A model generated the notes under the pieces. It was not told the DNA's origin and did not search any database. It saw nothing but the letters and a program-made list of their open reading frames with translations. From positions 1 to 53,664 of IMG/VR virus record IMGVR_UViG_3300020043_005951: a DNA stretch of 53,664 nucleotides; one strand, 5' to 3'. The position numbers were made by a program, and so were the translations under genes. Numbering within the stretch: the first letter of the stretch is position 1; the number at the start of each line of letters is the position of its first letter. Source of the stretch: a virus (taxonomy: Duplodnaviria; Caudoviricetes). Positions 1,508-53,221 of the stretch are shown here, one piece after another.

Positions 1508-1610
1508 TTGGGTTTTGAATTACCTATGATCGGCATAGGCTACCGATAGGCGAATTGCCTAGTTCCCAGTGTGGTTGCGACCCCACATACGCTTTTCTGG
1601 GAGGGGAGGG

Positions 1611-1964
1611 TTACTGGTCTAATTCATCTAAAACCAAAACCCAACCGTTTGTGAATGCTTTGTGTGCTTTGAGCAATGTGCTATCGCTCATACGGAACCA
1701 ACAAACAGGTGAGGGGTCATTTCGTTTCCATCGTTGAACCAAAGCACGCAAAGCATGGGCGTATCGCTTGCCACTATCGGCAACGATTAAAGGCGGGTTT
1801 GTTGCAACTATGTGTTCAGTTACAAACCAATCTTCCGTCCATGTGGTTGTGATTGTCCATTCCGTTGACAATCCAAGCGTGAGTTGAACGCATTCCGAAA
1901 GTGTCTTGACTTGGATTGATCGCCATTGGCGGGTTGATTGTGACAGTATGCTGACAGTGTACAT
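1611..1964 (-). CDS. hypothetical protein
   Basis: 117-aa ORF with AAGGA RBS-like sequence and a sigma70-like promoter just upstream. Confidence 0.55.
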   Translation of the reverse strand: MYTVSILSQSTRQWRSIQVKTLSECVQLTLGLSTEWTITTTWTEDWFVTEHIVATNPPLIVADSGKRYAHALRALVQRWKRNDPSPVCWFRMSDSTLLKAHKAFTNGWVLVLDELDQ

Positions 1965-2012
1965 TGTGCGTTTTCCTTAGTTGGTCGCAGGTCTCGTTTG
2001 CTTGACATGAGT

Positions 2013-2040
2013 AGTATCGCACAATCCAAAACAATGTCAA
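2013..2040 (-). promoter_or_regulatory. sigma70-type promoter
   Basis: Minus strand TTGACA (2040-2035), 16-nt spacer, GATACT (2018-2013), upstream of ORF 1611..1964. Confidence 0.55.
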
Positions 2041-2243
2041 CATCCATTTTTAAATTATTCGGAAATATTTCCGATAGTCCCAATTTACCCCAATTGGGTG
2101 CGACAATTTGCCATACAGTATTTCTTATATCGCGAAGCAAATTGTGTGCCAACTAGGGGTGGTTTGTGAATAGATTCACAAAGTAGGTGGCGACTAGGGG
2201 ACGATTGGTAGTTGCTTGCAATGGTGCCAACAAAAGTAGCGGC

Positions 2244-2306
2244 TGCCATTCTGGCAACTGCCAATTCGACATGTCATTCTGGCATGTCATTCTGGCATGT
2301 CATTTT
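2244..2306. repeat. tandem 13-mer CATGTCATTCTGG (about 3 copies) plus palindrome TGCCA-TTC-TGGCA
   Basis: Read directly: units at 2270, 2283 and 2296 (partial), palindrome at 2244-2256. Confidence 0.85.
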
Positions 2307-2338
2307 GTCATACTACCTTTGGGGGATTCGATGGACCT

Positions 2339-2411
2339 ACCAATGGTGGTACTACTTCAGGGGGATAGTCGAACCACCAATGGTGGTACTACTTCCGGGG
2401 GGACTACTTCA
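2339..2411. repeat. direct repeats ACCAATGGTGGTACTACTTC x2 plus a third ACTACTTC
   Basis: Read directly. Each ACTACTTC is followed by a G-run. Confidence 0.85.
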
Positions 2412-2675
2412 GAGGGGGAGTCAACCCCACCTAACGAGGGGGAGCTGATTAAGAAGATTTGGATACAAAAGTTGCTCTATGCGAGGCAGGGAAATTTGAT
2501 CTTTTGTCCAAGAATTTTGATATATGCGACCCAGGGAAATTTGTTCTTTTTGGTGCATTTTGGAAAGTTAGTTAGAAGTGAGAGAGATAGAAGGGAGAGA
2601 GTGTAATTAAGAGAGAAAAACAAGCAAGCTAGAAACTGCAAGATGGGGAAGATTTTGTTTCTAACTTGCTTGTGG

Positions 2676-2936
2676 TTAAGCCGCGTACACACCCCACACG
2701 TTCATTTCCTGGGGGAAGGTAGGGAAGGGGATGGGTAAGTCAGATGTGTGTGAATCGATTGCTTCGAATACATCTTCAGCAGTTACCATACTGTCGTTGA
2801 TAGCAATAGTAGGGGTGTCTGGGTTGCCAGTAGTAAGTTGGGCATCAAATTTACCAGATGCTTTGTGGACTACACAGATAACCTGTGGAGTGTGAAAGGG
2901 AGTCAGGAGTTCAATTGCTTCTGCTAGATTCATCAT
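2676..2936 (-). CDS. hypothetical protein
   Basis: 86-aa ORF with AAAGGA RBS-like sequence upstream. Confidence 0.55.
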   Translation of the reverse strand: MMNLAEAIELLTPFHTPQVICVVHKASGKFDAQLTTGNPDTPTIAINDSMVTAEDVFEAIDSHTSDLPIPFPTFPQEMNVWGVYAA

Positions 2937-3104
2937 AATGGTTCCTTTGTTGAGTGTTTATACGTTTTGCTAATTAGTGGCGAGTGCAACATAGCGAATC
3001 GGCTACATTGCAATAATATACAGCGTAAACGCATAGGCAAGGGGCTGGTAGGAATTATTCAGAAAATAGTTATGGGAGAAGCGGTTAGGTTGTTTGTAAA
3101 TGGG

Positions 3105-3788
3105 TTAGGAAGTTGGTGGAGTAGTGGGAATGGTCATTGGTAAGGTTGGGTTGTTTAGTTTGCGACGTTGGTATTGTTGGTTGGATATCCATTTGACGAT
3201 TTTGGCTTGGAGTTGGTGCTTGCGACCCCACCGCACTAATTCACTTTCTGGGGGGAGAGGGATTGGGGAGTAAGGGGTGATTATGGAGTAGTTAGTGAAA
3301 GGAGTGGAAGGAAGTAGTTGAGTGTAACAGCCTGGATGTGGAAGGGATGAGAAGTGAGAGTATGTGTAATGCTGATAGGATTGTGCATGAGTAGGAGGAA
3401 GGTGATTAAGGATGATTGTGCAGAGGAAGTTGGGTCCACATAGATCACGATACATTTGATGAATTGTGATTTGGTTGTTGGGATATTTGTGTCTGGAAGT
3501 ACATGAGTGGATTGTACCTATTCCAACATAGAAGGGCAATAGGTCGTCGGTTGTGTGCCATAGGTAGAGGCAGAAGTTGGGTTGTTGGTTGGATTGGTCA
3601 AAGAAATTGGATAGCTGGTTAGGCAGGTAGTTGGCATAGGAGTTTAGGGGTTTGTTGAAGGATAGGTAAGGTGCGGTGAATGGGCAATCTTGAGGAGCTA
3701 GTGGGATTGAGTAGCTTGGGTCGTTTGCGAGGTTTGGGTCAATTGTTTGAATGTTGTGTACTAATGGGGGTTCTGGTTTTCGTGTCAT
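3105..3788 (-). CDS. hypothetical protein with degenerate GIY-YIG-like motif
   Basis: FCLYLWH...LPFYVGIG resembles the YxYxH...PFYVGKG GIY-YIG signature. Low-complexity P/N/Q-rich flanks. Confidence 0.4.
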   Translation of the reverse strand: MTRKPEPPLVHNIQTIDPNLANDPSYSIPLAPQDCPFTAPYLSFNKPLNSYANYLPNQLSNFFDQSNQQPNFCLYLWHTTDDLLPFYVGIGTIHSCTSRHKYPNNQITIHQMYRDLCGPNFLCTIILNHLPPTHAQSYQHYTYSHFSSLPHPGCYTQLLPSTPFTNYSIITPYSPIPLPPESELVRWGRKHQLQAKIVKWISNQQYQRRKLNNPTLPMTIPTTPPTS

Positions 3789-4098: not shown

Positions 4099-4431
4099 TT
4101 AGTATGGTTGGTATTCGCCGAGTTCGGCCAGCATGATTTCTACGACTCTCTGGAGGGGAAGGGCTGAGTGAGGGGTGCGTTGTTTGTGTGGGATTTTGCC
4201 TTCTAGTTTGAAGTCTATTTGTGCTTGGAGTGCAGCAGATAGGGAATCGTGTGTGCCTAAATAGACTCGTGCTCCAGATTGGTTTGCATATGCACGAAAA
4301 CGACCAGAGCCATTTGGGACTATGTTAGGTGGATTGTCGGGTAAGGGTTTGTCTGATAATAGTTCTGGGTTTGGGACTGGAGTAGAGTCGGATAGATGCG
4401 TACTGTATTGGGGTTGCCAGAATTTAGGCAT
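4099..4431 (-). CDS. AP2-domain DNA-binding protein
   Basis: GRFRAY....GARVYLGTHDSLSAALQA matches the AP2 domain pattern. Lies next to an HNH gene. Confidence 0.6.
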   Translation of the reverse strand: MPKFWQPQYSTHLSDSTPVPNPELLSDKPLPDNPPNIVPNGSGRFRAYANQSGARVYLGTHDSLSAALQAQIDFKLEGKIPHKQRTPHSALPLQRVVEIMLAELGEYQPY

Positions 4432-5691: not shown

Positions 5692-6196
5692 CTTTGAGAG
5701 GGAACCAAGGTTTGAATAGCTTAGTATTTACTAGATTGTGAGCATACCAACAGCTTACAAAATAGTCCATATAGCGTTCAAACACAATAGGAAAGTAGAG
5801 GGTTATTTCTTCCCAGTCTTCTTGACAATTACAACCAAATTCAGGTATCATAGTATGAACCCAAATCTGATAGTCACGTTCAGCAGTCTTAGAACACCAG
5901 TCAGGAAGATAATAAGAATGCAATGCGTCCCATGCTTTATGAGATTGTTCCAATTTTTCACGTGAGATAGGAAGCTGTTCAGTTTGCATACATTCAAACA
6001 AGTCTGGATCAGGTTCTAATCCTGCTTTCATTTGAGCAGTTCTTGCCATGCTGCACGTCACCCCATTGATTCTCTGGGGGAGGGAGGGATGACTGCTGCA
6101 TGCTAGGCATTGTTCAGCTATTGGAGAGCATCTTAGCTTGGCTAGCTCAGAGGCGACTACGCACTCTCCTTGGAATAGATATTTGCAATCTGACAT
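5645..6196 (-). CDS. Erv1/Alr-like FAD sulfhydryl oxidase with Cys-rich N-terminus
   Basis: W..LH...C.C...W..HN.VN..L.KP (AWDALHS, GCNCQEDW, CWYAHNLVNTKLFKP). The active site is CxC rather than CxxC. Confidence 0.65.
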   Translation of the reverse strand: MSDCKYLFQGECVVASELAKLRCSPIAEQCLACSSHPSLPQRINGVTCSMARTAQMKAGLEPDPDLFECMQTEQLPISREKLEQSHKAWDALHSYYLPDWCSKTAERDYQIWVHTMIPEFGCNCQEDWEEITLYFPIVFERYMDYFVSCWYAHNLVNTKLFKPWFPLKDALKKYRDMHAQVQN

Positions 6197-8299: not shown

Positions 8300-8966
8300 T
8301 TTCGAAGCGTTCTTCAGGTTTTAACCCTGACCACGACCAAAATTGTTTACATGGCCAAGGTTTTATGTCCTCAGTGAAGTAGTAGGGATGGTTCTGTTGG
8401 TAAGCAAATGCACCGATGCAGTTGAATTCTGAGAATGCTCTGTTCGTAACCGTTTGTGCATGATTGTGCAACTGAGGATACGCTTCAGATAATGCACGTA
8501 CAGTTTCCGTTCTGTGCATAATCGGAAATGTTCTCATAAACTCATGAGTAGGAACAAATCCCAATGCCTTCTCGACCACCCCCTGCCAGTGACCTCCCTG
8601 GGGAGGAAGGAGATAGTAGGGAGTCATGTACAAGATTGGTTGTTTGACTGAGAACATATCTTCAAGATTGAAGTAGTCTGTGTAGATGCAGTCTGAGTCA
8701 GTATAAAGAATATGTTCAGTTTCAACATACTTATAAGCATCTAGCTTATCAAGCTGCTGACCAATGTAGCCGTCAATACTATTGTACTGTCTGCTGTAGA
8801 TGATCGAATCAAAGAAAGCAAATGCTTCTTGAGGAGGTACTTCACCTTCAGGAACTACAAGCATAGAAGTGGCGTATCCTGTGAGATACTTTTGCATACT
8901 TGCAATAGCATAGGTTAGCCATTTGTAGTCGGGACCATATGAACGAACAAATAGGGTTATGCTCAT
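8271..8966 (-). CDS. putative glycosyltransferase (GT-A / DUF6492-like)
   Basis: GY..QQ..KL, DSD metal-binding motif, FSEF. Sits within a glycan-modification cluster. Confidence 0.6.
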   Translation of the reverse strand: MSITLFVRSYGPDYKWLTYAIASMQKYLTGYATSMLVVPEGEVPPQEAFAFFDSIIYSRQYNSIDGYIGQQLDKLDAYKYVETEHILYTDSDCIYTDYFNLEDMFSVKQPILYMTPYYLLPPQGGHWQGVVEKALGFVPTHEFMRTFPIMHRTETVRALSEAYPQLHNHAQTVTNRAFSEFNCIGAFAYQQNHPYYFTEDIKPWPCKQFWSWSGLKPEERFEIESIINATR

Positions 8967-9613
8967 GGTTTTAGTTTTCTGTTTGAGAGGTATCGTCTAT
9001 CAGTTAAATCAAGCAATCCATTGGAAATAGATTCAACTGATTGATTGAATTCAAATTCAAGTAGCTTTAGACAACGTCGATGGTCTGTTACTTCCCATTG
9101 CTCCTTATGATCCTCATGGAAGATACCATCAGTGATAGTTTGGATTCGATAGCCAACTTTGTGAAGTTTCCAAACCAACCAATAATCCCAACCAGGAATA
9201 CCAAGTGCCCAAAGTGGGTTCCGCAAGTGTTGACGCATTTCTGGGAGGAGGAGGAAGATATCTATCCCATACTTGTTGACTTGTTTGTGATTGGCGTTGT
9301 AATCAGTACGTAATCCGATCTTGAGTACATTTGATTCAGGTTGCCAGGATGTTGGATTGAATGTACGAATCTCAATGTCTGAATTAACAAGCAAAGTTGG
9401 TTCAGATACGTTAATCAAGTCAACAATGGAAGGAGTCCTCTTACTCCACCAAGTATTAGGTTGAACCCAAGTGATACAAGGAGTGATCTGTAGTGCATAG
9501 TTTTCACCATAACACTGTATTGCTTCAATATCAAAGTCGTGTTGTTTCCATGTTTCAAGAGCGTTCAGTTGAGAGGGTAGTCGAGAGGGTGAGAAGGATG
9601 TAATGAGTTTCAT
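8963..9613 (-). CDS. putative glycosyltransferase-like protein
   Basis: LLVNSDI, GIDIF, LG.PGWDYW and H..H...W, plus gene context. Confidence 0.5.
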   Translation of the reverse strand: MKLITSFSPSRLPSQLNALETWKQHDFDIEAIQCYGENYALQITPCITWVQPNTWWSKRTPSIVDLINVSEPTLLVNSDIEIRTFNPTSWQPESNVLKIGLRTDYNANHKQVNKYGIDIFLLLPEMRQHLRNPLWALGIPGWDYWLVWKLHKVGYRIQTITDGIFHEDHKEQWEVTDHRRCLKLLEFEFNQSVESISNGLLDLTDRRYLSNRKLKP

Positions 9614-9924
9614 TAGTAAGGGTACTTTTTGTTATAATGGTTTTGTCGTTCCGTACAACCACAGTCGATTCCTAATTTAGTTGCCCATTCTTTGAATCTT
9701 TCACCTCCGTACTTTGCAAATTGTCTTTGAAGTGTATCACCAATTCCAATGTCAGATGGTATACGAAGCCTACGTACTATACGTACCCACCGTGGCGTCT
9801 TCTCTATTTTCTGGGGGGAAGGTATGCCTGAGAGGGTGGTGGGCTTCTTACATCTAGGGCAGGTGATTGTGGTTGCTAGATTACTATGGATAGGCCAGTT
9901 ACAGTTAGAGCATTGTTGCATCAT
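9613..9924 (-). CDS. Zn-ribbon / CGC-motif phage protein
   Basis: N-terminal CxxC...CxxC. C-terminal GIGDT...DCGCTERQ..YN motif recurrent in phage proteins. Confidence 0.65.
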   Translation of the reverse strand: MMQQCSNCNWPIHSNLATTITCPRCKKPTTLSGIPSPQKIEKTPRWVRIVRRLRIPSDIGIGDTLQRQFAKYGGERFKEWATKLGIDCGCTERQNHYNKKYPY

Positions 9925-10804: not shown

Positions 10805-11656
10805 TTAACTACTTATGACAGAAGCAGGGCAGTTGTCAACGTCAACAAAATAACGCGTACCGATCTTCTTGAGTTGTATTAAAGCATCACCAGTAATTCC
10901 CATCATTACCATGTTATAAATGGTTTCAGTAGCACCTGTTAGAGCACCAAATTCATCGACTAGATCGCATACTTCAGATGGAAATGTGTAAGGTGCTGTA
11001 TCCGTTGTCATTGCAGCAATACCACCAGATGGAGTTACTGCGAGTTTTGCATCTCCACCTGATCCAGTTCCTCCAATTGCTCCGGCTACAACTAGGTAGT
11101 AATCGAATTCCGACTCAAGTGTTACATCAGATATGGATTCTACATACCATTGTACGTAAAAGTAATTAAGAACTTGAATACGTCCAATATTATTTGTAAT
11201 TAAATCGGTATTATCTGGCCCAAGAAAGTTGAAGAAATCACCTTGGTAAGGAGCATCGCTAAGTAGAAATGTTTTTGTTTTGAGTAATGATACTCCACTG
11301 ACTAAGGCACGTGCCTGTGCTCCTATTTCTCCTGGGAGGGGGTCAAGGAGGATGAATATATCGTACTCGCCGCCGAAGATTGCTAGTGGGTCGGTTGTTT
11401 CCCAGACAGTCTCGTTGGTTATGTTATCTAATCTGTCGCTTAGAAGAAGAGAGGGATCACCTATCGCGACTACTGTAAATTGGTCTTTTGCTACTGCTTC
11501 ATGATTCGATACCCAAATCCAAGACTGTTGGGAAAGGTTGTGTATTGCAGGTATGCCTGTTAGTTTTTTATTTACTGCTTTGTCTACCTTGTTGTACCAC
11601 GCAGCTGTGTATACATCGAGGAAAGGATCACCAGGTTTAGCCATAACAGGAACCAA
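10805..11656 (-). CDS. putative minor tail protein
   Basis: Position after tape measure and distal tail. Acidic, beta-rich composition. Confidence 0.5.
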   Translation of the reverse strand: MVPVMAKPGDPFLDVYTAAWYNKVDKAVNKKLTGIPAIHNLSQQSWIWVSNHEAVAKDQFTVVAIGDPSLLLSDRLDNITNETVWETTDPLAIFGGEYDIFILLDPLPGEIGAQARALVSGVSLLKTKTFLLSDAPYQGDFFNFLGPDNTDLITNNIGRIQVLNYFYVQWYVESISDVTLESEFDYYLVVAGAIGGTGSGGDAKLAVTPSGGIAAMTTDTAPYTFPSEVCDLVDEFGALTGATETIYNMVMMGITGDALIQLKKIGTRYFVDVDNCPASVISS

Positions 11657-11856: not shown

Positions 11857-12732
11857 TTAAATGCCCAGTAGGTCAAAGTTGCCTGGTTCTCTAACTTGTA
11901 ATATTTGACGGAAGACTGGGTGAAGTAGTTGAACACTGTTTGAGATTCTTGGATCGTATATGTAGTCAACAATATCATGACCGAGCTTAGTCAATGATGG
12001 AAAAGGTGGATCAGCAACACCAGATATATTTGGTCTGTAAATGAAGTTAAACGTCACAGGAACATACTTAAATGCTTCTGAATTAGCATCACAATAATCA
12101 AACAGTACACTTCCCGCAGGAAATCCGTAGAAGGTGGCATTGTTGTATGTTTTGGACAGCGAAGCATACGTTAACATTACTGATGTTGTCCAAATACTTG
12201 GATCAAAATAACCGGTAATGTTGAAAGACAAACCAGGATCAGTTATGTCCATACCATCAACGTTTGTACCGTTCTTCCCAATCCCTCTGTATGTTTCTGG
12301 GGGGATGAGAGAGGAGCCTGATTGTGCTACTATAGAACGCTGTGAGATTGCTTGACTGATATGAACGGTTTCACCATTAGTGCTGAATCCAAACTGGATG
12401 TGAGTTGAGTTCTGTTCTTTCTCAGGAAGTGAGTAAGTAAGTGTTACTTTCCAACCACCATCTACTTGTTCTACCCCGGATATATCATTGATGAATAACT
12501 CTACATCACCTAGGCTAGTTGGAAATACTCTTGAGTCAGGGAAGTTGTCATAAATGTATTTCAGTATGTTGACGTCATCATTAGGCGTGAAGAAGTCACC
12601 ATACAAAGTATCCCAAGCAACCTGATCTGAGATAGCATCAGGTTCACAGATGTAATACTCAAATGTTTGAGTAGTTCCATCCCGTGTCTGAGAGAAGCGT
12701 CTACTTTCGTAGCCTATTTCGAAGTAACTCAT
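11857..12732 (-). CDS. putative minor tail protein (distal tail/hub)
   Basis: 291-aa ORF shortly after tape measure. N..TFYGFPAGSVLF motif typical of such tail proteins. Confidence 0.55.
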   Translation of the reverse strand: MSYFEIGYESRRFSQTRDGTTQTFEYYICEPDAISDQVAWDTLYGDFFTPNDDVNILKYIYDNFPDSRVFPTSLGDVELFINDISGVEQVDGGWKVTLTYSLPEKEQNSTHIQFGFSTNGETVHISQAISQRSIVAQSGSSLIPPETYRGIGKNGTNVDGMDITDPGLSFNITGYFDPSIWTTSVMLTYASLSKTYNNATFYGFPAGSVLFDYCDANSEAFKYVPVTFNFIYRPNISGVADPPFPSLTKLGHDIVDYIYDPRISNSVQLLHPVFRQILQVREPGNFDLLGI

Positions 12733-12952: not shown

Positions 12953-15900
12953 TATTTCAGACCCATTGTTACAGGTAATCCATGTTGTAGGATTTGATCC
13001 AAGTTGCCAGTTGTCTGACTGGTGTTGTCTTGAATCTGTTCCAAAGCTGTGAGACTCTTTTGTTCAACCGATTGACCTGATGCAAATTTAAGTAAGTTAC
13101 GTCTTGTCTGTTGGAAACTACCAGTTACGGAAGAAACAAGATCGGAAAGTTGAGCACGTTGAGGGGCTGCAATTGTTCCTCTAGCTTGCTTACGTAGTTC
13201 TCTTACTTGATCTTTTAACAGACCAGCCCGCTGAGCGTTATCAATTATCTGCTTCAAGGTACGTTGACGTTTAAGAAACTCTTGCGGTGATTCAACAGTC
13301 TTTTGTACACCTAAAGCAGCAAATTGACCAGGAGGTTGGATACCTAGTGCTTGTCCTTTGAATACCGTATCCTTCCGAAGTCTTGCAGTATCCAAACGTA
13401 AATCTTTCAACTGGCTTTGAATGAACGGTATCTGTGCTTTGGCAACAGCAGCAGGATCAGCTTTTGCAGCAGCAGTAGTGAATACAGCTTTAGCATTTTT
13501 ACCTATTGCAGAAAGATTGTCTTTGTTGAATATCTTTCCAAATACGGCATCAATGTTATTATTCGTACCAGTACCACCAAATAAAGCAGCAAGAGGATTC
13601 TTTGTTGGTACTGGAATTCCATTGAATGCACCAATGAATTGACCTAAGTTACTGAATGGTCCTTTTGGTGATTTGCTAAGTCGATCTGCTGTTTCATTTG
13701 CAAAACCCAACAACATCTGTTGTACTTGGGATTCAGTGTAGCTAAGATTTAGTGCTTTGATCTTTGCAGGCTCTAAAGCAGGAGCGGTGAAGATATTGGT
13801 GAGTCCGTCTTTGAATGTCTTCAAGAACTTATCTAACTTGTTTGTGAAACCATCAAAGGATTGATTAGCTCTAGTAACCTTCAAGTCAAACTGATAGAAG
13901 TTCTCAGCGATCTCTTCGAACTGTCCGGTGCTTGGATTGAATCGTAAGAACTTTTGTCCAGCTAGCTTTTCCATTGCTTGTGTAGGAGCAAAGTCATTTG
14001 ATTTATTACTTGGTAGTACACCTAAGAAAGCAATCATTGCAATACGTAGATCACGCATTGTTTGAGCTATTGCATTGTAGATCAACTTCATAGTATCATT
14101 AACTGATGAAGCCATACCTACAATAGCAAGGCCGATACCTTCAAAGATACCTTTCATGTCGATTGCTTCGAAGACTCCACGAATCATTTCACCAATGCCA
14201 CCACCAAGCCCACCACCTTGAAATAGATTAGCAAGATTGCTTAATGTATTTCCTAATGATGCTCCAAATGTATTAGCAAACAATTTACCCAATTCAGCAG
14301 TTGAACTGATTAGCTTGACTATGAAGTCGTAAGCAGGAGCAATTGCTAGTGTCAAATGATTCCATGCTTCACTCAGTTTGTTACCAACGATATCTACAAT
14401 AGCAGATAAAGCGGTACTTAGTTGTTGAAAGCCAAGATCGCCGTCACCCGCAAGAAGTGTTTTCATACTCTTGCCGATTAAGGAAAATGCAGGGCCAACT
14501 GCTGTAGCAATACTACCAATTGCTCCAAATGCTGATCTGATACCTGCACCAAGACGTTCAAAGGCTTCTCGAATAAATTTGATCTTAGGACCAAAGATAA
14601 GCAAGAAGGTAAGAATGTTTCCCCAACCAGACAGCGTAGTAAGAGTCTTGAAAGAAATTGCAGCAAGTGCTCCAAATGCTTTGGTGAGTGACCAAACTGC
14701 TTTTGCTCCACTAAGGAAGATTCGAACAAAGTCGATCTTCCATAGGGTTCGGAATCCAAATACAACTAGCTTTAGTCCACCAGACCAAAGACGAGCAAGA
14801 GCAGTTCCAGTTTTAGCAATTACAGCAGTAGTTGATGTTTTTGCAAATGTAGCTCCAAATTGGGTAGCTGATTTGAAACGTCCAATACGAGCTAACTTAG
14901 CCTGTAAAGCTGCTTGTTTAACACCACCAGCTAAAACAGCTTTGTTTACTAGATTTTGACCTCTAGCAATTCTAGCTACTTCTAGTTTGTTACGTCTAGC
15001 GGCTAAAGCATTTAGAGCTTTTTTGTTACTTGCTACCTCCGCAGTCAGAACATCGCGTTCAATAACTAATGCTGATCGGTCTACGTAATTAGTTATGGTT
15101 GCTAATTTCTTATCAACTGCAGCTATTTGCTTTGTAAGAGAAACTTTTCGAGCTAATGCTGCATTTTGCTTGTTGCCGATACTTACAAGTGCTTTTGATT
15201 CTGGCAGCTTCGGTGTAACAGAATCTGTATTTAATTGTATTAAAGCAATCTGGGTACGTCGAAATGCACGTTGTTGTGCGAGTAGTCGTTTGTTAGGAGC
15301 TAACGCTTTACTAATCGCAGCAGCCATTCTGGAATAGACAGAAACAGCTTTGGGTCCAAGAGCTTTCAGATTCGTATACAGACTCTTTGTTGCAGCTACC
15401 AAATAATTAGTTGCGGCTGTTGCTGCACCTAATCCGCTTTTGGCTGTTGCTCCTGCTTGGGTTGCCCCTACTCGACCCAGGAAGCTGGTTGGTTTGATTT
15501 TTCTAGCGTTCCGACCCCGCCCCCCGACTAACTGGGGGGTGAGGAGGGCTGCTGATAGTCCTCTGTCAAAACTGCGTGCTGACTTACGGATTCTATCCAT
15601 AAGTACAGCTACGTTGGTTAGTTGTTGGGTAAGTAATCCACCAATCAGCCTACCTGTTCCACGAATACCTCCAGCAAGTAATCCAATCACTCCTGCTAGT
15701 TTGGCTGCTGCGAATGATGCTACGAGTAGTCCTGCTCCTAACCCTAGTATGGCTACTGGGCTGAGAATCAATCCAGTCACTAAGGTCTGGTTTGCTTTGG
15801 TTAATTGCTCAAGTGCTAGGGATAGGGCAGGGACTAAATCGAGAGTAGGGATAATTGCGTCAGCTAGTAACTTACCCCAACGTAATGTCAGACCTTCAAT

Positions 15901-24311: not shown

Positions 24312-24341
24312 CGCCCACCGCGTCTTTCTGGGGAGGAAGGG

Positions 24342-38486: not shown

Positions 38487-38689
38487 AATGCTTTGTCCTC
38501 TACTGTTACTACTTCGATATATCTAACTTGAACTACACTATTAGGAAGTACAACTAAGTCTAGTCGCTGCATTTGATCTACTATTTCTTGAAGCACTTTT
38601 TCTGCTGATAAAGATGTTTCATAATCAATTGTTGTTACAGCTCCACTAGTGTGTATAATTCGTATTCGTATTGGTTTCAAAATGGGCAC
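38483..38689 (-). CDS. hypothetical protein
   Basis: 68-aa ORF overlapping the polymerase stop. Confidence 0.5.
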   Translation of the reverse strand: MPILKPIRIRIIHTSGAVTTIDYETSLSAEKVLQEIVDQMQRLDLVVLPNSVVQVRYIEVVTVEDKAL

Positions 38690-41142: not shown

Positions 41143-41346
41143 TTACTTTCTGGGGGGAGGGATAGGATACTTGTAGTTAATGCGGTTGATAATGAGTTTT
41201 ACTACTGTTATACTGACTCCGAATTGTTGAGATAATGCTTTGTATGAAGTCTTGGTAGTTGCATAGATATGACGCATTTCTTCAGCTTGTTCGAAGGTCA
41301 GCTTGCGATGTGACCAGTTCCAAGAGTTGTTCATGCATTCTTCCAT
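41143..41346 (-). CDS. small HTH protein
   Basis: KLT..QAEEMR..Y....SYKALSQQFGVS. Confidence 0.6.
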   Translation of the reverse strand: MEECMNNSWNWSHRKLTFEQAEEMRHIYATTKTSYKALSQQFGVSITVVKLIINRINYKYPIPPPRK

Positions 41347-43536: not shown

Positions 43537-44313
43537 TTAAACCAGGTTCTTTCGAATTGGTTCTGGGAGTGCGTTGTAAAAGTTGGTGTAACCTTCAATG
43601 GCTGACTTACCCATTGGAATTACTGGGGGAAGGTGTAGGGTGTTCTTGGCTATGTGATAGCCAGAGAATGAAGTGTACATCAAACGAGTAGGAGCACCAG
43701 TTGATTTGCCTTCCAAGACTTTGGTATCTTGTCCGTATCCAGCTGACTGTGTAACAATGTCGATGTTACGTTTACCAGACATAAATAGGATTGCTTGTGC
43801 CCATTTACGAAGTGGTCCGGTGATACCTTCATCACCAAATAGGGTTTGTACTTGAACATCAGCACCACCAGTATCAGGATCAACATCATTCTTGCGGTGA
43901 GCACAAAAGACGATGTTAAGACCTTGAGCACGTTTGAATTCAATAATGTCAAGGAACATCGACATTTCACGTGGACAGTCTTGACGTAATCCATTGTAGA
44001 ATGACTTGAAGGCTTTGAAATTGCCGTCATAACAAGTCTGTACTACATAAGGAATGAGGTACTCTTGTAGACCACTGATGGAGTCAATTACAAGAGTTTT
44101 AGCTTGACAGGCTTTGACTGCAACTAATACGTCTTCCCAATTAGCACAATTGAGTCTAGTACAACCTGCTGGTACTTCACCTACCATTTCTAAGTTGTCG
44201 AAGCCCGGTTCTTTGATTGGTAAGATGTGAAGTGGTTTTGGAAATTGAAGTGAGAAGGAAGTCTTCCCAATCCCTTCAATTCCAAAAAGAATGATTCCGA
44301 GTCCTCTAGGCAT
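43537..44313 (-). CDS. AAA_24 (Sak4-like) ATPase
   Basis: G.EGIGKTS, TLVIDSIS, AH, and AKN..LP..I. Confidence 0.85.
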   Translation of the reverse strand: MPRGLGIILFGIEGIGKTSFSLQFPKPLHILPIKEPGFDNLEMVGEVPAGCTRLNCANWEDVLVAVKACQAKTLVIDSISGLQEYLIPYVVQTCYDGNFKAFKSFYNGLRQDCPREMSMFLDIIEFKRAQGLNIVFCAHRKNDVDPDTGGADVQVQTLFGDEGITGPLRKWAQAILFMSGKRNIDIVTQSAGYGQDTKVLEGKSTGAPTRLMYTSFSGYHIAKNTLHLPPVIPMGKSAIEGYTNFYNALPEPIRKNLV

Positions 44314-44758: not shown

Positions 44759-45952
44759 TTATTTGGTTTCCAATTCCGAAAAGAAGGATTTTACTGGGAC
44801 TAGGGAATCGTAGTCGGCTTTGCCAATAAGTACAGCATGGTAAGAACATTCGTACTTAAAGGTGTGAGCAGGGTTGAAGGTGCGTATTGGTGCTCGGTAG
44901 AAAACCGAGTTGTACCAACAAGTTTCATTTGGATCAAAATCAGGAGAAGTTACAACGTGCCACCAATCAATCATTTGATAGATGATTGGTACAATTGTTT
45001 GTTCAACGTAGCGTAGATTTTCTTCCTTTGATTGAAAGAATGGAACTTGATTGAGCCACTTGCCGTAGCATGTTCGAATTGGGAATCCATTCATCACATC
45101 CTTATGAGTATTGAATATCCGATCCGTCCATTCCGCCGCCGTCTCTCCTGCTCTCTGGGGGGGAGTGCGAGGCTGATCCTCAGGCATAAGTATTAGATCA
45201 TATATCCAGTTCTCGATTGAATCAAACATGAAGGCATATAGGTTCATCTGCATGTCTTCACCTAGTTCCTTCTTGGTTGTTTCTGCGTCAGATGCGTTCT
45301 TACCTTTTGCTTTATGATCTCCAAGCATACGTAGGGGAAGTGTTAAGTCAGCAGTAACAATGTCTGCTTTGCCTTTAATACGAACAGATTCGACGTGAGG
45401 ATAAATGTAAGCTGATCGTTCAGAAAGGGTGAGTGGAGCAGGTGCTGATCGAAATGCTGAGCTATCAAGTAAAGGGGAGGCGTTTGAGGAAGAAGCGGAG
45501 TGAGCAAGAGTGTGGGTAAATAGGGCATGACGGATGGCGTGCATTGAAGCGAATCGGTATGATAGGAATTCTCTCATACTGTCGATGTGTACTTCAGTGT
45601 TTAGCTTGCCCCAAGGTTCAAAGACAGGTATTGCTTTCTCTTGGTAGAGTTTAAGCATTGCTTCAGTAGTGAACTTGAACGTGTTAGGAGCACGAGGATA
45701 GTTCTTGATTCGATACTCATCCATTTGTTTGAGTGAGTATTCAAGAGTATCCCCCTGTACTAAGTGTTCGAGTCCTTTGTGAAGTGTATCACCCCATGCA
45801 AGATTAGGACTGGGTGGTTTTGGGTCTTCCAATCCACAATAAGCATAGAGGTAGAATTGAAAAGGACAACGAATGAATCTTTGCATAATGGATTGAGTAA
45901 TTCCATCAACGAAGGGCCCTTTCCAAGCGGGTTTTTCAGGACGTGGGATCAT
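44759..45952 (-). CDS. PD-(D/E)XK exonuclease (Cas4/RecB-like)
   Basis: S....F.RCP, G..LHKGLE, E...KGKADIV...DHKA, Q...YA. Confidence 0.8.
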   Translation of the reverse strand: MIPRPEKPAWKGPFVDGITQSIMQRFIRCPFQFYLYAYCGLEDPKPPSPNLAWGDTLHKGLEHLVQGDTLEYSLKQMDEYRIKNYPRAPNTFKFTTEAMLKLYQEKAIPVFEPWGKLNTEVHIDSMREFLSYRFASMHAIRHALFTHTLAHSASSSNASPLLDSSAFRSAPAPLTLSERSAYIYPHVESVRIKGKADIVTADLTLPLRMLGDHKAKGKNASDAETTKKELGEDMQMNLYAFMFDSIENWIYDLILMPEDQPRTPPQRAGETAAEWTDRIFNTHKDVMNGFPIRTCYGKWLNQVPFFQSKEENLRYVEQTIVPIIYQMIDWWHVVTSPDFDPNETCWYNSVFYRAPIRTFNPAHTFKYECSYHAVLIGKADYDSLVPVKSFFSELETK

Positions 45953-46589: not shown

Positions 46590-47275
46590 AATTGGATCTT
46601 CCTTCCTTCTTCTCTGATTGGTTTAAGTTTGTAATTGAGTCGAGCTATGTAAGCAGGATGGTATAGTTGCAAAGTAGGTAACGTAGTCTTGATGAATTGT
46701 TTGTTGTATTCATCAGCGACTTCACCCAATAGGATTACTCCGTCGAATTTGTATGCTTGGAGGAGTTCTTGTGTATGTGACAAGCACAAGAATTGTTCTG
46801 AGGTTTCGGGTTTACGGTTAGTGAGACGATTGCTGATAGGGTCATTAGCAGTAGGGCGACAACAAACAGTGTTGGTGATTGTTGCCAGAAATCTTGTGCG
46901 TGAGTAATCAAGTACAGTACGTAAGATGTGACCAGCAACGCCGTAAAATGGTACACCGTGAAAGTCTTCTGATTCACCTGGAGCTTCTCCGATCATTAAG
47001 ATGTGTGGAGGTAGTTTGAGAAGGTTGAGAGAGTAAGGAATGAATGGTTGAGGGTATGGAGGATTTTCAAGGTACCGCCAGGCCAGCCGCTCATTTCCTG
47101 GGGAGAGAGGGAGTACCGGATGGATGTGTGGATGTATACCGGGTTGTGGCTTGAAGGGTTCTGTGTTGATTATCCACTGTCCTCTGACAACGACGTTGTT
47201 TCTTGTAGCGTGGAGTCTGCATTTGGTACAGTTTGACCAATCGGTACTGGGTGTATTTCTACAATTGTTTTCCAT
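46541..47275 (-). CDS. uracil-DNA glycosylase, family 4-like
   Basis: CTKCRL, IGEAPGESED..G.PF.G.AG, ITNTVCCRP, YHPAY. Confidence 0.9.
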   Translation of the reverse strand: MENNCRNTPSTDWSNCTKCRLHATRNNVVVRGQWIINTEPFKPQPGIHPHIHPVLPLSPGNERLAWRYLENPPYPQPFIPYSLNLLKLPPHILMIGEAPGESEDFHGVPFYGVAGHILRTVLDYSRTRFLATITNTVCCRPTANDPISNRLTNRKPETSEQFLCLSHTQELLQAYKFDGVILLGEVADEYNKQFIKTTLPTLQLYHPAYIARLNYKLKPIREEGRKIQLWVKSLKTEKPFYVHS

Positions 47276-48219: not shown

Positions 48220-49305
48220 TCATGCTATTTCCTTTGCGGTTGCATTACGTGGGACACCTTTGTCGGTTAAGCCGTAGTATTCAACTAAGGCTGCTTTTCC
48301 GATGTACAAGTGGGGATAGATGAGTAGCTTTTTGCGTTCTTCATGGTTGGTATTGAGACTGGCACGGAAAGCTTGTCCATTATAATCGCAGACAAGTACT
48401 CCCTCAGTCTTCTTTGTTCTTCCAGGTTCGGTGCTAATGATCTTACACCAATCGAGGTCGGATTCTTTGTATTTAAGAAGTCCGTAAGAACGGGTGTCGA
48501 TTTCATAACAAGAATCCAGGTTGCGGATGATCGTGCCTTCATAACCAGCAGCAACAAACTTAGCTTGGTAATTCAGTAGTTCTGATGACTTACCAATATA
48601 AGTCTGTACTGGCATGATTGGGAATGGGATTGGTTGATGGTTGAGAATGTATGGGTCTTTCTCATAAGCATCTTGTAGTTCCAAAACGATTTCAGCAAGT
48701 AGAGTACGACGTGATGAATACTTGACGTTTTCATCGACTAGATCGTATACATGGTATTCCATAAGAACAGAGTCATACGTCAATGTTTGTGCTCTCGACT
48801 TCATAATCTGTTGGAATCGCTTGTTGTCGCTGTACAGCTCCCCATCCAATACAATCTCTGGGGGAAGGGCGGCTAGGGCTTTCTTGATTTGTGGGAAGAC
48901 AGGCAGAGGACTATTGGTTCTGGTCCGCATCCTGTCAAAGGAGCCCAAACATCTGTATCCGTCCAGTTTGGGTTGGTAAGCAACCTTATCAGGAATCTTT
49001 GACATGTGTTCCTGTGCACGGTTGGCAAGCATCGGTAGAAGGGGTTTGGTGATGGGGATATGGGTAGTGTATCCGCGTCTGTCTTTCTGTTTAGCGATTC
49101 GACGGTCAGCTTGGACGACTGCGTCATCAATGGAGTCACAGGTAATGGTTTCAAATGTCTTTGATGCGTTGGTTTCTCCATGACGGATGATTACCTTGTT
49201 TAATTCAGTCCAGATACACCATTCACGAATCTTGTTGCGTGAATCCATCTTGTACAGAAGCGTTTGAGGAGTAGAAGTCGTAGTAAACGAAGGTGTTGTA
49301 GACAT
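48220..49305 (-). CDS. ATP-dependent DNA ligase
   Basis: PMLA, QPKLDGYRC (KxDG), LDGELY, YDL, GYEG.I.R, LLKYK. Confidence 0.93.
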   Translation of the reverse strand: MSTTPSFTTTSTPQTLLYKMDSRNKIREWCIWTELNKVIIRHGETNASKTFETITCDSIDDAVVQADRRIAKQKDRRGYTTHIPITKPLLPMLANRAQEHMSKIPDKVAYQPKLDGYRCLGSFDRMRTRTNSPLPVFPQIKKALAALPPEIVLDGELYSDNKRFQQIMKSRAQTLTYDSVLMEYHVYDLVDENVKYSSRRTLLAEIVLELQDAYEKDPYILNHQPIPFPIMPVQTYIGKSSELLNYQAKFVAAGYEGTIIRNLDSCYEIDTRSYGLLKYKESDLDWCKIISTEPGRTKKTEGVLVCDYNGQAFRASLNTNHEERKKLLIYPHLYIGKAALVEYYGLTDKGVPRNATAKEIA

Positions 49306-49691: not shown

Positions 49692-51152
49692 TTATCCTGC
49701 TGATACGTAGATTTTTTGGTGCTTGGAACGGGTTTCAGATACAAATTCCAAGTTGATTTCTTGTTCAACTTGTTCTTGGTTGTCTGGTTGTAATTGGACT
49801 GGAGGGTAGAGAATGTATACTCGTTCTGCTTCTAATCCTTTTGATTTATGAATGGTTGATAGAGCAACAGAACCAGGAGCGTCTTTGGTGAGTGAGTAGA
49901 GGTTGTTGAGCAATTGAGGGATTGTTCTGCAACCTTCTGATAGTTCGATGATGCAGTCTGATCGTTCCTTAACAAAAGAGCCTGCTTGAAAGCCTAATTT
50001 GGAAGCATTGTCCGAGTCTGCTGTTGCAATTGACAGTAATTGGGACAGTGTGGTTGCTCTAGTTTGTTTGATGTAGTCTGTTAGGACCACTTCAAGAGAA
50101 CGATCATTTGTACGTTGTAGCAGATGACAGGCAACACCCTGTTTCATCAATTTAATACCTACTCGAAGCAAAATATTGTTTAATCGAGCAATTAGGAGGT
50201 TTTCCTTTGGATTTCCAACATTTTCAGTGATATATGCACCTAAATCATTGATTTGGAGTGAAATATCAGGGATAGGTTGTGTTTTCTTTGCAACAATACG
50301 TGCTGGACGTATTGTGTTTGCATGTTCAACATGATTAGGTGGGCATCTAAAACATGTTTTTAAGGGTAAAGCAGGAGGACAAAGAGAGGAAAGCCGATCA
50401 AATGCTCGATAATCTGCACCAGCGAATCCGTTGATTGCTTGGTAGGGATCACCACAAAAGATCAAATGTTCGCATGATTTAAGCATTAAAAGCAATTTGA
50501 GGGGACTTAAATCCTGACATTCGTCTACATATCCGACAGTATAGGTAGGAGATTGGATAGATTGGACTGCTAACCAGTATTGATCTATCCATTCTACTGA
50601 TCCGTCTACTATCATCATCCGTTCCATCAGCTGCCGCATCGCCCCTGTATCTTCTGGGGGAGGAGCCTCGATGCCATACTTAGCTTGTACAAAGTCGAAG
50701 CTGGCTTCTGATGGGGTTAGTAGTTCTTCCTTTAGGTGTTTGACGTATCGTAGTGCTGTATAGTACACACGACGCCGTTTCCATTCCATATCCTCTAGAC
50801 GTTCACCAAGGACTGCTTCTAGTAGTTTCTCTCCACGTTTGTGATCTAGCTTTTGGAAGCGATGTCTACGTTGAAGAAGGGATGCTCCTAGTCCATTGTA
50901 GGTGAAGCATTTAGTATCAGAAGGGATTTTGGAAATCAAGTCTTGTTTACCAGCATCAGTCATACAAGCAAAAACGGCTTGAGCAGCGTGTATCTTTGGT
51001 ATACGCTGCCTAATGGTTTCCATAATTATGTATTGTTCAGGAGTTGGTTGGTAACCAGGTAGTTGACCTGACAATACATAATTGTGGGAATGGATGAGGG
51101 TGGTTGTCTTACCAGAACCAGGGCCGGCTTCAATTAGGGTTCTAGTTGTCAT
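49692..51152 (-). CDS. UvrD/Rep-like SF1 helicase
   Basis: AGPGSGKTT, VDECQDLS, GDPYQAINGF.GA, FRCP, STIHKSKGLE, V..TR. Confidence 0.92.
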   Translation of the reverse strand: MTTRTLIEAGPGSGKTTTLIHSHNYVLSGQLPGYQPTPEQYIIMETIRQRIPKIHAAQAVFACMTDAGKQDLISKIPSDTKCFTYNGLGASLLQRRHRFQKLDHKRGEKLLEAVLGERLEDMEWKRRRVYYTALRYVKHLKEELLTPSEASFDFVQAKYGIEAPPPEDTGAMRQLMERMMIVDGSVEWIDQYWLAVQSIQSPTYTVGYVDECQDLSPLKLLLMLKSCEHLIFCGDPYQAINGFAGADYRAFDRLSSLCPPALPLKTCFRCPPNHVEHANTIRPARIVAKKTQPIPDISLQINDLGAYITENVGNPKENLLIARLNNILLRVGIKLMKQGVACHLLQRTNDRSLEVVLTDYIKQTRATTLSQLLSIATADSDNASKLGFQAGSFVKERSDCIIELSEGCRTIPQLLNNLYSLTKDAPGSVALSTIHKSKGLEAERVYILYPPVQLQPDNQEQVEQEINLEFVSETRSKHQKIYVSAG

Positions 51153-51510
51153 TAATGGCTTTCATTACGTTGTCGCGGAATTGAAGCAGGTGGGTGATTG
51201 TGTCTCTGTCAGTTGAGCAGTAAGCAAGTCGAGTTTGAAGAGTGGAATGAAGAAGTCGGATTTGAGCAGGTAGCGTACTTTTGGTAAACAATTCAGCTCG
51301 TGCATCCTCAATGACTTTTTGTTGTAGCTCTCTAGGAATAGGCATTCCATGATCTTCTAGAAACTTGATTAAATACTCTTGAGGAATACGGCGATCTTGT
51401 GAACCTGGTATTACATAGCCTTTTAAACGTCCTGAGTCGAACCACTTACCAACTGTTCTAGGGGCTACATGAAGAAGTTTAGCTGCCTGTCCTGTTGTAT
51501 ACACTTGCAT
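51142..51510 (-). CDS. HTH_17 (excisionase-like) DNA-binding protein, Planctomycete regulator-like
   Basis: VYTTGQAAKLLHVAPRTVGKWFDSGRLKGYVIPGSQDRRIP..YLIKFL..HGMP. Confidence 0.85.
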   Translation of the reverse strand: MQVYTTGQAAKLLHVAPRTVGKWFDSGRLKGYVIPGSQDRRIPQEYLIKFLEDHGMPIPRELQQKVIEDARAELFTKSTLPAQIRLLHSTLQTRLAYCSTDRDTITHLLQFRDNVMKAINDN

Positions 51511-51718
51511 CTTCGATTTCCTTAAAGAATTGTGAGGGTGTTAGATTGAGTGCCGTAATCAGTTTGAGCAAGGTTTCTAAGTTGGGTGCATTGAGTTTTG
51601 TTTCAATGTATCCAACTGTGGTGTAATGTATCCCTGCTCGTTTTGCCAATTCCCTTTGTGAGTAGCCGGAAGCGTATCGTTGGTGTATGAGTTCATTGAC
51701 TACTTGGTCAGGGGTCAT
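51479..51718 (-). CDS. XRE-family HTH regulator
   Basis: R...GYSQRELAKRAGIHYTTVGYIE....PNLETLLKL..AL. Confidence 0.9.
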   Translation of the reverse strand: MTPDQVVNELIHQRYASGYSQRELAKRAGIHYTTVGYIETKLNAPNLETLLKLITALNLTPSQFFKEIEDASVYNRTGS

Positions 51719-52083
51719 TAGAGAACTTTCGGGACAAAGTAGATGGTTTGGGAAGTAACAGGAGTCAAGTCGATTGCGTCCTTTCTGATTACTGGGAAGA
51801 CGCCTCCGTTTTTAATCCATTCGTTGAGGGCGTCTAAGGCTTCCAAGGTTTGAAGTCGTTCTCCATCATGGATTGCTTCGAGTAGGTTTCGTAGTGCTTC
51901 TTGTGGGTCCATAATGGGTAAATTGTAGAACCTTTCGTCATCGTGTGAGAGGAAAATGTCAGTTTGTTTGTTGTACCAAGATTTTTCAATGGTGTCGTAT
52001 ACGTAAACGTCAGAGAATGGATGTGATTTGGGAAGGTGAATATCCGTTCTGTCTGAGAGGATAAATGCTTTGGGTTTATTCAT
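51718..52083 (-). CDS. hypothetical protein
   Basis: ORF with start taken at MNKPKAF, overlapping the upstream stop. Confidence 0.5.
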   Translation of the reverse strand: MNKPKAFILSDRTDIHLPKSHPFSDVYVYDTIEKSWYNKQTDIFLSHDDERFYNLPIMDPQEALRNLLEAIHDGERLQTLEALDALNEWIKNGGVFPVIRKDAIDLTPVTSQTIYFVPKVL

Positions 52084-52397
52084 GGTAGTTTCACCCAGAA
52101 CAATTGGCCGTGGCTGATGTAGTAGGAATAGATGGTGCCAGTCTTTTTGAGCTGTGCCCGCTTCCATGCCCACTGATTTCCTGGGAGGGAGAGAGGGTGG
52201 GCTAGGTTGGCTGTTGGTGGGATGGAGTTGAGAGTGAGTCTTGCTTGCTTAGTACGTTGTTGTTCTTCTTTTCTTGCCATCTTTATTTCCTTATCAATTT
52301 GTGAGAGTAATTTGTAAGATTCAGGAGAGATTTCGTTGGCATAGCCGTCTATTGTTGGATCATCATGAATTAGGTAGGTTGAAACTATGCGTACCAC
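52080..52397 (-). CDS. hypothetical protein
   Basis: 105-aa ORF with AAGGA RBS. Confidence 0.5.
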   Translation of the reverse strand: MVRIVSTYLIHDDPTIDGYANEISPESYKLLSQIDKEIKMARKEEQQRTKQARLTLNSIPPTANLAHPLSLPGNQWAWKRAQLKKTGTIYSYYISHGQLFWVKLP

Positions 52398-52429
52398 AAT
52401 TAGGTTTCCTTACTTTATTAGTTTGTTGG

Positions 52430-52630
52430 TTACATCCCCATGAAAGTGATTAGGATTTCTTCTGCACCGTAACAAGTTGGGTTTTCACAGACAGGACATT
52501 CATATTCATGGGCATCTGGTTCACATGAGTCGTGAGTCCAGTCACCACAATGAGTACACCAACCGGAGTAGTCGTCGTCTTGGATGTGGGCTTCTAAATC
52601 TTCGAATTGAGGGAGCTTTGGTTTGGGCAT
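52430..52630 (-). CDS. small Zn-ribbon protein
   Basis: GWCTHCG....CEPDA..YECPVC....YGAEE, a recurrent phage family, with AAGGA RBS. Confidence 0.7.
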   Translation of the reverse strand: MPKPKLPQFEDLEAHIQDDDYSGWCTHCGDWTHDSCEPDAHEYECPVCENPTCYGAEEILITFMGM

Positions 52631-52665
52631 GACTGGGTTTCCTTAATAGACAAAAGGGAAATGGG

Positions 52666-52869
52666 TTATACAGCGGGATTGATTTCAAATTCACCATCAA
52701 TAGTTGGGAGCACTTTAGTAAGTTCTAGCAAGTCAGGGTTGAGCTTTTGACAAGTTAGGATAACTGCACTAAATGCTTGTCGTGCTTCAGTAGGGTCAGC
52801 AGCACCATTTACTACAACTGTCCATTTGCAGGATTCTTCACAGTAGTTGAAGATTACTTGAATAGGCAT
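52666..52869 (-). CDS. hypothetical protein
   Basis: Start at MPIQVIF after TAAGGAAAACCCAGTC, nearly the same leader as at 52631-52645. Confidence 0.55.
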   Translation of the reverse strand: MPIQVIFNYCEESCKWTVVVNGAADPTEARQAFSAVILTCQKLNPDLLELTKVLPTIDGEFEINPAV

Positions 52870-52882
52870 GACTGGGTTTTCC

Positions 52883-53221
52883 TTAGTTGATGAATTGGAT
52901 TTCAAACCCGTGTGGCAGCAGCATTGCGGCAAGCCGCCTTTCACTTTCTGGGGAGTGAGGGAGCTGCATGATATCACAAGCTAGATCGGTTTGGACTGAT
53001 TTGCTACGTATTAGACGAGTGAATGGTGGTACAGCAAGATTGAGGTCGGATGCTAGTATGGGTTTCTTTACTTTGTCTGATTCGACTGCATGACCTAGGC
53101 CTTGAAGAATTTGACCAAGATAGTCGATGCGTTGAGTGGCTTGTCCGTTTACTTCTACCCAAGTGGAGAGGCAAGCAGGTCTAATTGGTAGGACTGATCG
53201 TTTAATGACAATGGTTTTCAT
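52883..53221 (-). CDS. hypothetical protein
   Basis: Start at MKTIVIK after TAAGGAAAACC. Confidence 0.55.
   Translation of the reverse strand: MKTIVIKRSVLPIRPACLSTWVEVNGQATQRIDYLGQILQGLGHAVESDKVKKPILASDLNLAVPPFTRLIRSKSVQTDLACDIMQLPHSPESERRLAAMLLPHGFEIQFIN

Follow-up and report, generated by a model that had tools for sequence, protein, structure and literature searches.

The window analysed here is the complete IMG/VR virus record IMGVR_UViG_3300020043_005951 (Duplodnaviria; Caudoviricetes; 53,664 bp, 43% G+C), in which the long open reading frames (ORFs) all lie on the - strand. Read in the sense direction, the window opens with a perfect promoter (TTGACA-16-TATAAT, 53435-53408, - strand) upstream of the first gene. 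The genes that follow encode, in order, an HNH-like ORF, a UvrD-like helicase, an ATP-dependent ligase, a UDG-like protein, a PD-(D/E)XK nuclease, a Sak4-like ATPase, MazZ-like and MazG pyrophosphohydrolases, a family A polymerase, a primase-helicase, the large terminase (TerL), portal, capsid, tape measure and tail genes. Through this gene array, confined to the + strand that serves as transcription template, runs a polar motif with the core 5'-TYCTGGGG-3', whose form, distribution, recurrence in related phages and possible reader are the subject of this analysis.

Form, strand and coding context of the motif

On its 5' side the core is bordered by a pyrimidine-rich, G-poor stretch and on its 3' side by one rich in G and poor in C, the whole footprint spanning ~36 nt. 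Aligned on CTG, the signal extends from about -20 to +16 and comprises a C-rich, G-poor stretch, the sequence AYTTY, an invariant CTGG and a G-rich purine run; the invariance of CTG in the 29 copies found by regular expression is by construction of the pattern. The pattern YYCTG[GA]{5,} occurs 30 times on the + strand and 12 times on the - strand, and YYCTGG[GA]{4,} occurs 29 times on the + strand, with five weak matches on the - strand. A 42-column weight matrix built from these 29 copies and applied at a threshold of at least 16 bits gives 32 matches on the + strand and one on the - strand, a difference of ~30-fold, and adds the copies beginning near 15530 and 43621, bringing the total to 31 + strand sites (Table 1).

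An earlier inspection of the same DNA, referred to below as the sequence-only reading, had counted 31 copies on the + strand, most of them inside genes, with examples at 27842, 41147 and 17737. The examples are correct, the count equals that of the matrix scan (29 by regular expression), and ~25 of the 31 sites are intragenic, in genes that include TerL, portal, capsid, tape measure, ligase, UvrD helicase and primase, with five or six intergenic. The same reading had seen only weak matches on the opposite strand, which holds for the five regular-expression matches but not for one strong match (53593). This sole - strand matrix match lies inside a 108-nt terminal inverted duplicate, an exact (100%) inverted repeat with arms at 52108-52215 and 53557-53664, the second of which ends the contig. 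The - strand copy is probably an assembly or end artefact; the repeat itself may have arisen in assembly or library preparation, or it may reflect a physical end of the DNA.

Codon usage was assessed with synonymous shuffles (n = 300) in which each protein and the codon pool of each gene are kept. The - strand genes contain 23 copies, versus 5.0 +/- 2.05 after shuffling (maximum 11 in 300 shuffles), which rules out a by-product of codon usage. A strict form of the motif (CTG followed by nine purines, at least six of them G) occurs 21 times on the + strand and once on the - strand, with shuffle means of 6.9 and 1.2, respectively. CAG occurs in codon phases 0, 1 and 2, ruling out a single peptide motif. 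Neither of two outcomes that the sequence-only reading had listed as damaging to it, counts accounted for by proline codons and equal counts on the two strands, is thus observed. The excess over shuffles, the use of all three phases and the presence of intergenic copies therefore indicate a signal at the DNA level, and the motif is such a signal, imposed on the proteins. In a TerL loop the residues SPE are encoded by TCC CCA GAR where the motif is present, and TCT CCT GAA or other residues are found where it is absent; the motif in TerL arises through codon choice and residue changes both.

The view that the motif has no function, arising as a side effect of mutation bias, Pro/Glu codon usage or the composition of the coding strand, is strongly disfavoured by the shuffles and the spacing and is barely credible. 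It would be in keeping with the G/T-rich antisense strands, with the excess of C over G at sense-strand 4-fold sites in all six genomes compared below (judged uninformative on replication direction), and with the ~5 copies that outlast synonymous shuffling. It does not explain the other copies in coding sequence, the occurrence in three codon phases and in intergenic DNA, the tight coupling of CT to the G-rich run, the regular spacing, or the two routes by which the motif is created in TerL.

Several structural candidates were also rejected. For a hairpin in which the upstream C tract pairs with the G run, the mean energy is -10.0 at the sites versus -9.7 for same-window shuffles, nothing beyond composition, and no Rfam family reaches its gathering score. 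A G-quadruplex is not a shared feature: four G-runs are present at several window sites but not in low-GC relatives. Avoidance of head-to-head restriction sites, as known for T7 and EcoP15I, could yield polarity but not enrichment or regular spacing. No report of the motif, or of any evenly spaced polar motif in phage genomes, was found in the full-text literature searched.

Table 1. Motif copies in the window and genes bearing on their possible function
Feature	Position	Strand	Remarks
Motif copy	1595..1610	+	intergenic
Motif copy	2707..2719	+	
Motif copy	3246..3262	+	top matrix score, 35.9
Motif copy	4148..4163	+	
Motif copy	6072..6089	+	
Motif copy	8596..8613	+	
Motif copy	9239..9258	+	
Motif copy	9809..9822	+	
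Motif copy	11330..11342	+	site at homologous place in G001
Motif copy	12295..12305	+	
Motif copy	15530..15549	+	tape-measure gene; AA for YY before CTG; matrix-only copy, 24.1 bits
Motif copy	17738..17754	+	intergenic
Motif copy	19715..19728	+	site at homologous place in G001
Motif copy	22314..22323	+	capsid gene
Motif copy	23490..23503	+	portal gene; site at homologous place in 4 of 6 relatives
Motif copy	24326..24341	+	intergenic, just upstream of portal start
Motif copy	27843..27856	+	intergenic, 11 nt upstream of ATG
Motif copy	29412..29427	+	
Motif copy	30626..30637	+	weakest regular-expression copy, 16.0 bits
Motif copy	33386..33400	+	
Motif copy	34392..34407	+	TerL; retained by L192 and L193, missing from 5 more distant relatives
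Motif copy	35766..35783	+	TerL, xSPE loop; kept in L123, L194 and L127
DnaG-type primase (Zn ribbon, TOPRIM) fused to P-loop helicase	35939..37948	-	669 aa; candidate motif reader
Motif copy	37871..37881	+	primase-helicase gene
Family A DNA polymerase	38677..40791	-	
Motif copy	41148..41162	+	9 nt upstream of MazG start
Sak4-like annealing ATPase	43537..44313	-	
Motif copy	43621..43633	+	Sak4; TA before CTG; 16.3 bits; same CCCCCAGTAAT in G002 and G003
PD-(D/E)XK (RecB/Cas4-type) nuclease	44759..45952	-	
Motif copy	45153..45165	+	PD-(D/E)XK nuclease gene
Motif copy	47096..47113	+	UDG-like gene
ATP-dependent DNA ligase	48220..49305	-	
Motif copy	48856..48869	+	ligase gene
UvrD-like SF1 helicase	49692..51152	-	
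Motif copy	50652..50665	+	UvrD-like helicase gene
Motif copy	52179..52197	+	upstream of HNH ORF, in inverted-repeat arm 52108-52215
Motif copy	52946..52955	+	
Motif copy	53575..53593	-	only strong - strand copy, in terminal inverted duplicate

Spacing and recurrence in related phages

Gaps between the 31 sites average 1712 nt (minimum 539, maximum 3517) with a coefficient of variation (CV) of 0.486, and the probability of a CV this low or lower is 1e-5 in 100,000 uniform placements; the 29 regular-expression sites alone give a CV of 0.63 (P = 0.004). The mean spacing of ~1.7 kb and the successive gaps of 1532, 1943, 1760, 1796 and 1527 nt given in the sequence-only reading are reproduced, and the random spacing that it had named as a third adverse outcome is not found. 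Refined matrices were prepared for each of six genomes (G000-G005), with the threshold set to allow two sense-strand matches, and yield 24-49 sites per genome with mean gaps of 0.9-2.0 kb. Spacing is regular in four of the six (P <= 1e-4 in each case), namely G001 (42 sites, CV 0.34, gaps 449-2200), G003 (49 sites, CV 0.51), G000 (33 sites, CV 0.52) and G002 (43 sites, CV 0.56). The two genomes with 24 sites each are G004, with a CV of 0.71 (P = 0.048), and G005, with a CV of 0.92 that is not significant.

TerL has 139 relatives at E <= 0.001, and 48 loci lie in viral contigs. Nine of these loci (TerL identity 34-59%, 34-44% G+C) bear the motif antisense to their genes; it is lacking in the 39 more distant ones (24-32% best-segment TerL identity; 47-67% G+C, mostly >57%). 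Whole-record counts, antisense to sense, are 29:2 in G001, 24:5 in G002, 37:7 in G003, 21:8 in G004 and 27:9 in G005, with the reversed pattern, used as control, giving 0-2. A test on G-rich runs, which is independent of the motif itself, indicates that CT precedes 29/54, 24/31, 23/30, 41/53, 14/23 and 27/53 of the antisense G-rich purine runs in the six genomes (51-77%), where by our own estimate ~1/8 would be expected by chance. The loci L125 and L126 carry the variant YTCTGGGG(G)TGG; in them CTGGGG occurs 14 and 15 times on the antisense strand versus 7 on the sense strand, and spacing is similar. The 3' flank is G/A-rich in G000-G005 and G/T-rich in the L125 and L126 sub-clade. Upstream, C is enriched at -20 to -8, at 0.47 versus a background of 0.20 in G000 and more weakly in G001, G003 and G004. 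An exact 14-mer scan of viral contigs returned single chance matches only, among the matches listed (80 of 118).

A site occurs at the place homologous to that in the window in only 11 of 41 alignable comparisons, yet the numbers of sites are kept; in TerL, a few permissive loops are used repeatedly. Judged from these comparisons, the motif is a strand-specific DNA signal common to a phage clade. Because site positions mostly differ between genomes, it is number, polarity and spacing that appear to be under selection and maintained while the positions turn over.

Transcription is one-directional in all six genomes, and the orientation of the motif is fixed relative to it; polarity with respect to transcription, replication, packaging or entry is therefore inseparable in these sequences. 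This fixed orientation speaks for stoperator-like polar duplex sites, at which a phage protein would act in an orientation-dependent manner on transcription elongation, fork passage or compaction. The stoperators of Cluster A mycobacteriophages, as treated in the relevant sections of PMC9283540, are likewise asymmetric, number more than 20 per ~50-kb genome, and follow the direction of transcription. They differ in being exact 13-mers of temperate phages, found in promoters and in short spaces between genes, whereas the sites here are mostly intragenic. Neither a repressor nor an integrase was recognised among the ~40 window ORFs scanned, many of which have no assigned family, and the single helix-turn-helix protein (51142-51510) has a homologue in none of the relatives. 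A fuzzy purine run would also be atypical for a duplex operator, and this explanation is considered improbable.

A Chi-like role is somewhat better placed, although still doubtful. The motif would be read on the 3'-ended strand by host RecBCD/AddAB or by the phage UvrD-like helicase and PD-(D/E)XK nuclease; the enzyme would thereby be switched from degradation to recombination or protection, and linear or rolling-circle phage DNA would survive. Over-representation and orientation bias are both observed, and density and polarity match those of Chi-rich lambdoid phages: LLS carries 23 Chi sites in a 20:3 ratio, or one per 1.86 kb, and MD8 has 32:0, according to the parts of PMC12315714 that describe them, so that these phages share with the window about one site per 1.3-1.9 kb, a strong orientation bias and a G-rich core with CTGG. 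The CTGG..GG core matches GCTGGTGG at 6 of 8 positions, L125 and L126 carry CTGGGGTGG, and the motif is G-rich and single-stranded in its logic. The UvrD-like helicase, PD-(D/E)XK nuclease and Sak4 are present in four of five relatives, the fifth being a truncated contig, and if each site carries a cost, selection for coverage could yield regular spacing. The Chi sites of LLS and MD8, as far as described in PMC12315714, are exact copies of a host octamer, lie near one end, and occur in phages lacking a Rec module. The motif here is longer than such short exact 5-8-mers, consisting of a core with a variable purine or G/T run; its flanks are fuzzy and differ between related phages, it is evenly spread, and it accompanies a Sak4-like ATPase and a nuclease. 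Nor was enrichment found in the 406 bacterial genomes scanned (5 + 401, mostly Planctomycetota), in which TYCTGGGGGR is never denser than ~1 per 14 kb, a weak test given that the host is not identified.

As a separate observation, the more distant TerL relatives (24-32% identity, L171-L191) are situated in Planctomycetota metagenome-assembled genomes (MAGs) and in two multi-megabase contigs or chromosomes (3.6 and 7.4 Mb), apparently as prophages, and are G+C-rich and without the motif. The contig of one relative is filed under a Patescibacteria MAG.

The virus record and its other features

CheckV assigns the window record a completeness of 36%. Despite this value we think that the record is nearly whole, because TerL relatives sit on 50-57 kb contigs and all modules are present. 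No close DNA relatives of the window were found among 50,697 deposited phages, where identity to its polymerase (PolA) is at most 29%; PolA as a single query against viral contigs found no relative, and TerL against metagenome contigs found three short pieces only. Strains related to window positions 33001-53000 (85-99% alike) occur in wastewater, aquatic and soil metagenome contigs from four studies, the differences being mostly transitions.

The window contains no tRNA genes. Next to the polymerase lie a MazG protein (40788-41138, - strand) and the N-terminal domain of a MazZ-like dATP/dGTP diphosphohydrolase (PF18909, 33.6 bits, above cut-off; 41573-42172, - strand), a pair that points to editing of the nucleotide pool and possibly to a modified base; none of the window ORFs scanned resembled PurZ. 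An 871-aa protein with Ig and PKD domains (24976-27591, - strand) has a homologue in none of six relatives, and its gene, which may have been acquired recently, contains no motif copy and covers most of the longest motif gap (3517 nt).

Two tandem 26-nt AT-rich repeats (53491-53542) lie in the only long non-coding stretch of the window, beside the promoter at 53408-53435, and together with it form a candidate early control or origin region. At the other end, a 49-nt direct repeat is present in three copies (71-80% alike) at 2459-2552 and 3788-3836 in gene-poor DNA, and positions 1964-2676 lack a - strand ORF and contain G-rich 31-nt repeats, within a surrounding interval (2001-4000) having a GC skew of 0.385. 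The sequence TAAGGAA(A) is found 5-9 nt ahead of many gene starts throughout the window, a placement that fits a host in which ribosomes bind through the very 3' end of 16S rRNA. Of the intergenic motif copies, four lie 6-15 nt before a start, and their CAGRAA part overlaps the ribosome-binding position.

The primase-helicase and a proposed reading of the motif

The identification of the product of 35939..37948 as a Zn-finger/TOPRIM primase-helicase, made in the sequence-only reading, is upheld by sequence motifs and by Foldseek. Six homologues share invariant CxxC..CxxC, EG, D and GxxGxGKT (Walker A) motifs; Pfam alone remains below threshold, but a profile of the six finds the Aquifex DnaG zinc domain (E = 0.007). 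The structural model, with a mean predicted local distance difference test score of 82, matches Twinkle (2e-10), Aquifex DnaG (2e-7), T7 gp4 (3e-7) and T4 gp61 (4e-7). All six relatives examined, five records plus L123, have the protein, and four of the five records have the ligase.

The motif may be considered, tentatively, as a set of preferred lagging-strand (Okazaki) priming sites for this DnaG-type primase-helicase. On this proposal the + strand would always be the discontinuously copied template, as in unidirectional or rolling-circle replication, and the primase-helicase would read the motif on the single-stranded + template. Initiation would take place at the trinucleotide CTG, its 3' G being cryptic, and primers would start with pppA-G-R-R-A; the 3' flank, rich in G, would add affinity and would not be copied, and the upstream C tract would give a G:C-rich 3' part to a primer of 10-20 nt. 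A fuller form of the proposal, equally tentative, is that Okazaki starts are hard-wired in this clade, an unusually long single-strand element (CTG and G-rich flank) allowing priming only at the ~25-50 encoded sites. Fragment length and replication polarity would in that case be written into the genome and kept by selection through coding sequence.

The coupling of CT to the run, the compositional flanks, the regular 1-2 kb spacing, which is of Okazaki scale, and the restriction to one strand would all fit preferred priming sites. A fuzzy compositional footprint, its 3' flank G/A-rich in G000-G005 but G/T-rich in L125 and L126, suits single-strand affinity better than base-specific duplex recognition. 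In sequence terms a trinucleotide having a cryptic 3' base is present, and a DnaG-type primase is encoded. In the passages of PMC6136900 on primase recognition, CTG is named as the initiation trinucleotide of Escherichia coli DnaG, G/T-rich flanks are stated to raise T7 primase binding up to 10-fold, and T7 is described as having 1,322 GTC sites, of which few are used. The window phage would resemble such T7 gp4 and DnaG systems in encoding a DnaG-type primase-helicase and in having a trinucleotide on a single-stranded template, read by a zinc-binding domain, with flank composition tuning its use. It would differ in that sites of those systems are trinucleotides whose use is stochastic, neither regularly embedded nor confined to one strand genome-wide, and in that a long uncopied G-rich 3' flank would be new. 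Of the priming proposal in the sequence-only reading, the motif, its polarity, its spacing and the presence of a primase stand; the reading of the motif by the primase, the role of the + strand as lagging-strand template and all mechanistic steps are inferred.

A number of points weigh against priming. The C-terminal helicase half of the model matches MCM/AAA+ folds by Foldseek, and MCM/AAA+ helicases translocate on the leading-strand template. To our knowledge an uncopied 3' element of 6-12 nt is without precedent. With the + strand as lagging-strand template, forks would run head-on to all transcription, an arrangement that is usually disfavoured, and with one-directional transcription in the six genomes the polarity of replication is not separable from that of transcription. 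Spacing is not regular in G005 and is weakly regular in G004. The zinc domain of DnaG-type primases, as described in the pertinent part of PMC6163395, reads a trinucleotide with one cryptic 3' base. Finally, models based on nicks, Chi-like signals or roadblocks explain polarity, density and conservation about equally well.

Nicking is the remaining explanation of this kind. Late in infection, a phage-encoded activity would nick the + strand at the motif or close to it, and packaged DNA would carry ~30 localized single-strand interruptions, resembling the situation in T5, phiKMV-like and tf/LUZ24-like phages; we hold this to be rather unlikely, about as much so as a Chi-like role. Known nick motifs in these groups, in the accounts given in PMC11780129 and PMC3517423, are restricted to one strand, run through coding sequence and are kept across related phages family-wide, and in phiKMV-like phages lie on the non-coding strand, as the motif here does in all six genomes; a ligase is also encoded. 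The consensus differs, TYCTGGGG being unlike TACTRTGMC, WACTRTGAC, CGACxxxxxCCTACTCCGG and RGCGCRGG. Known motifs are moreover exact 7-19-mers, clustered and unevenly placed at 4-14 per genome, versus 24-49 fuzzy and regularly spaced sites here. Rembedalsseter has 13 sites concentrated on one side, with a mean net strand excess of 9.0 in 61 related phages, and phage tf has 14 top-strand nick sites, 11 of them in the left half, phiKMV-like nicks being on the non-coding strand (corresponding parts of PMC11780129 and PMC3517423). The HNH ORF, the only nuclease-like candidate near the motif, has a homologue in one of five relatives, and no conserved nickase candidate was found among the five relatives compared.

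Taken together, Okazaki priming is rated as the likeliest of the named functions while remaining tentative, nicking and a Chi-like role are rated below it and alike, and a polar roadblock is rated lower again, the remainder being left to something not considered.

Genome-wide one-strand motifs of phages are known as nick sites, Chi sites and stoperators, and the function of nick sites has stayed unexplained for 50 years. Regular spacing, density, fuzzy flanks and turnover of positions set the present motif apart from these. The clade adds a case in which number, polarity and a regular spacing of 1-2 kb are kept while positions turn over, and in which protein sequences have been shaped by so strong a signal; in addition, the motif offers an easy means of recognising members of this uncultivated clade. 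If the sites prove to be nicks or Chi-like signals, their regular spacing would provide a cleaner system for asking what purpose such signals serve. If they are priming sites, the clade would provide the first case of lagging-strand synthesis programmed by position, carried out by a primase with long sequence specificity that could be a useful tool.

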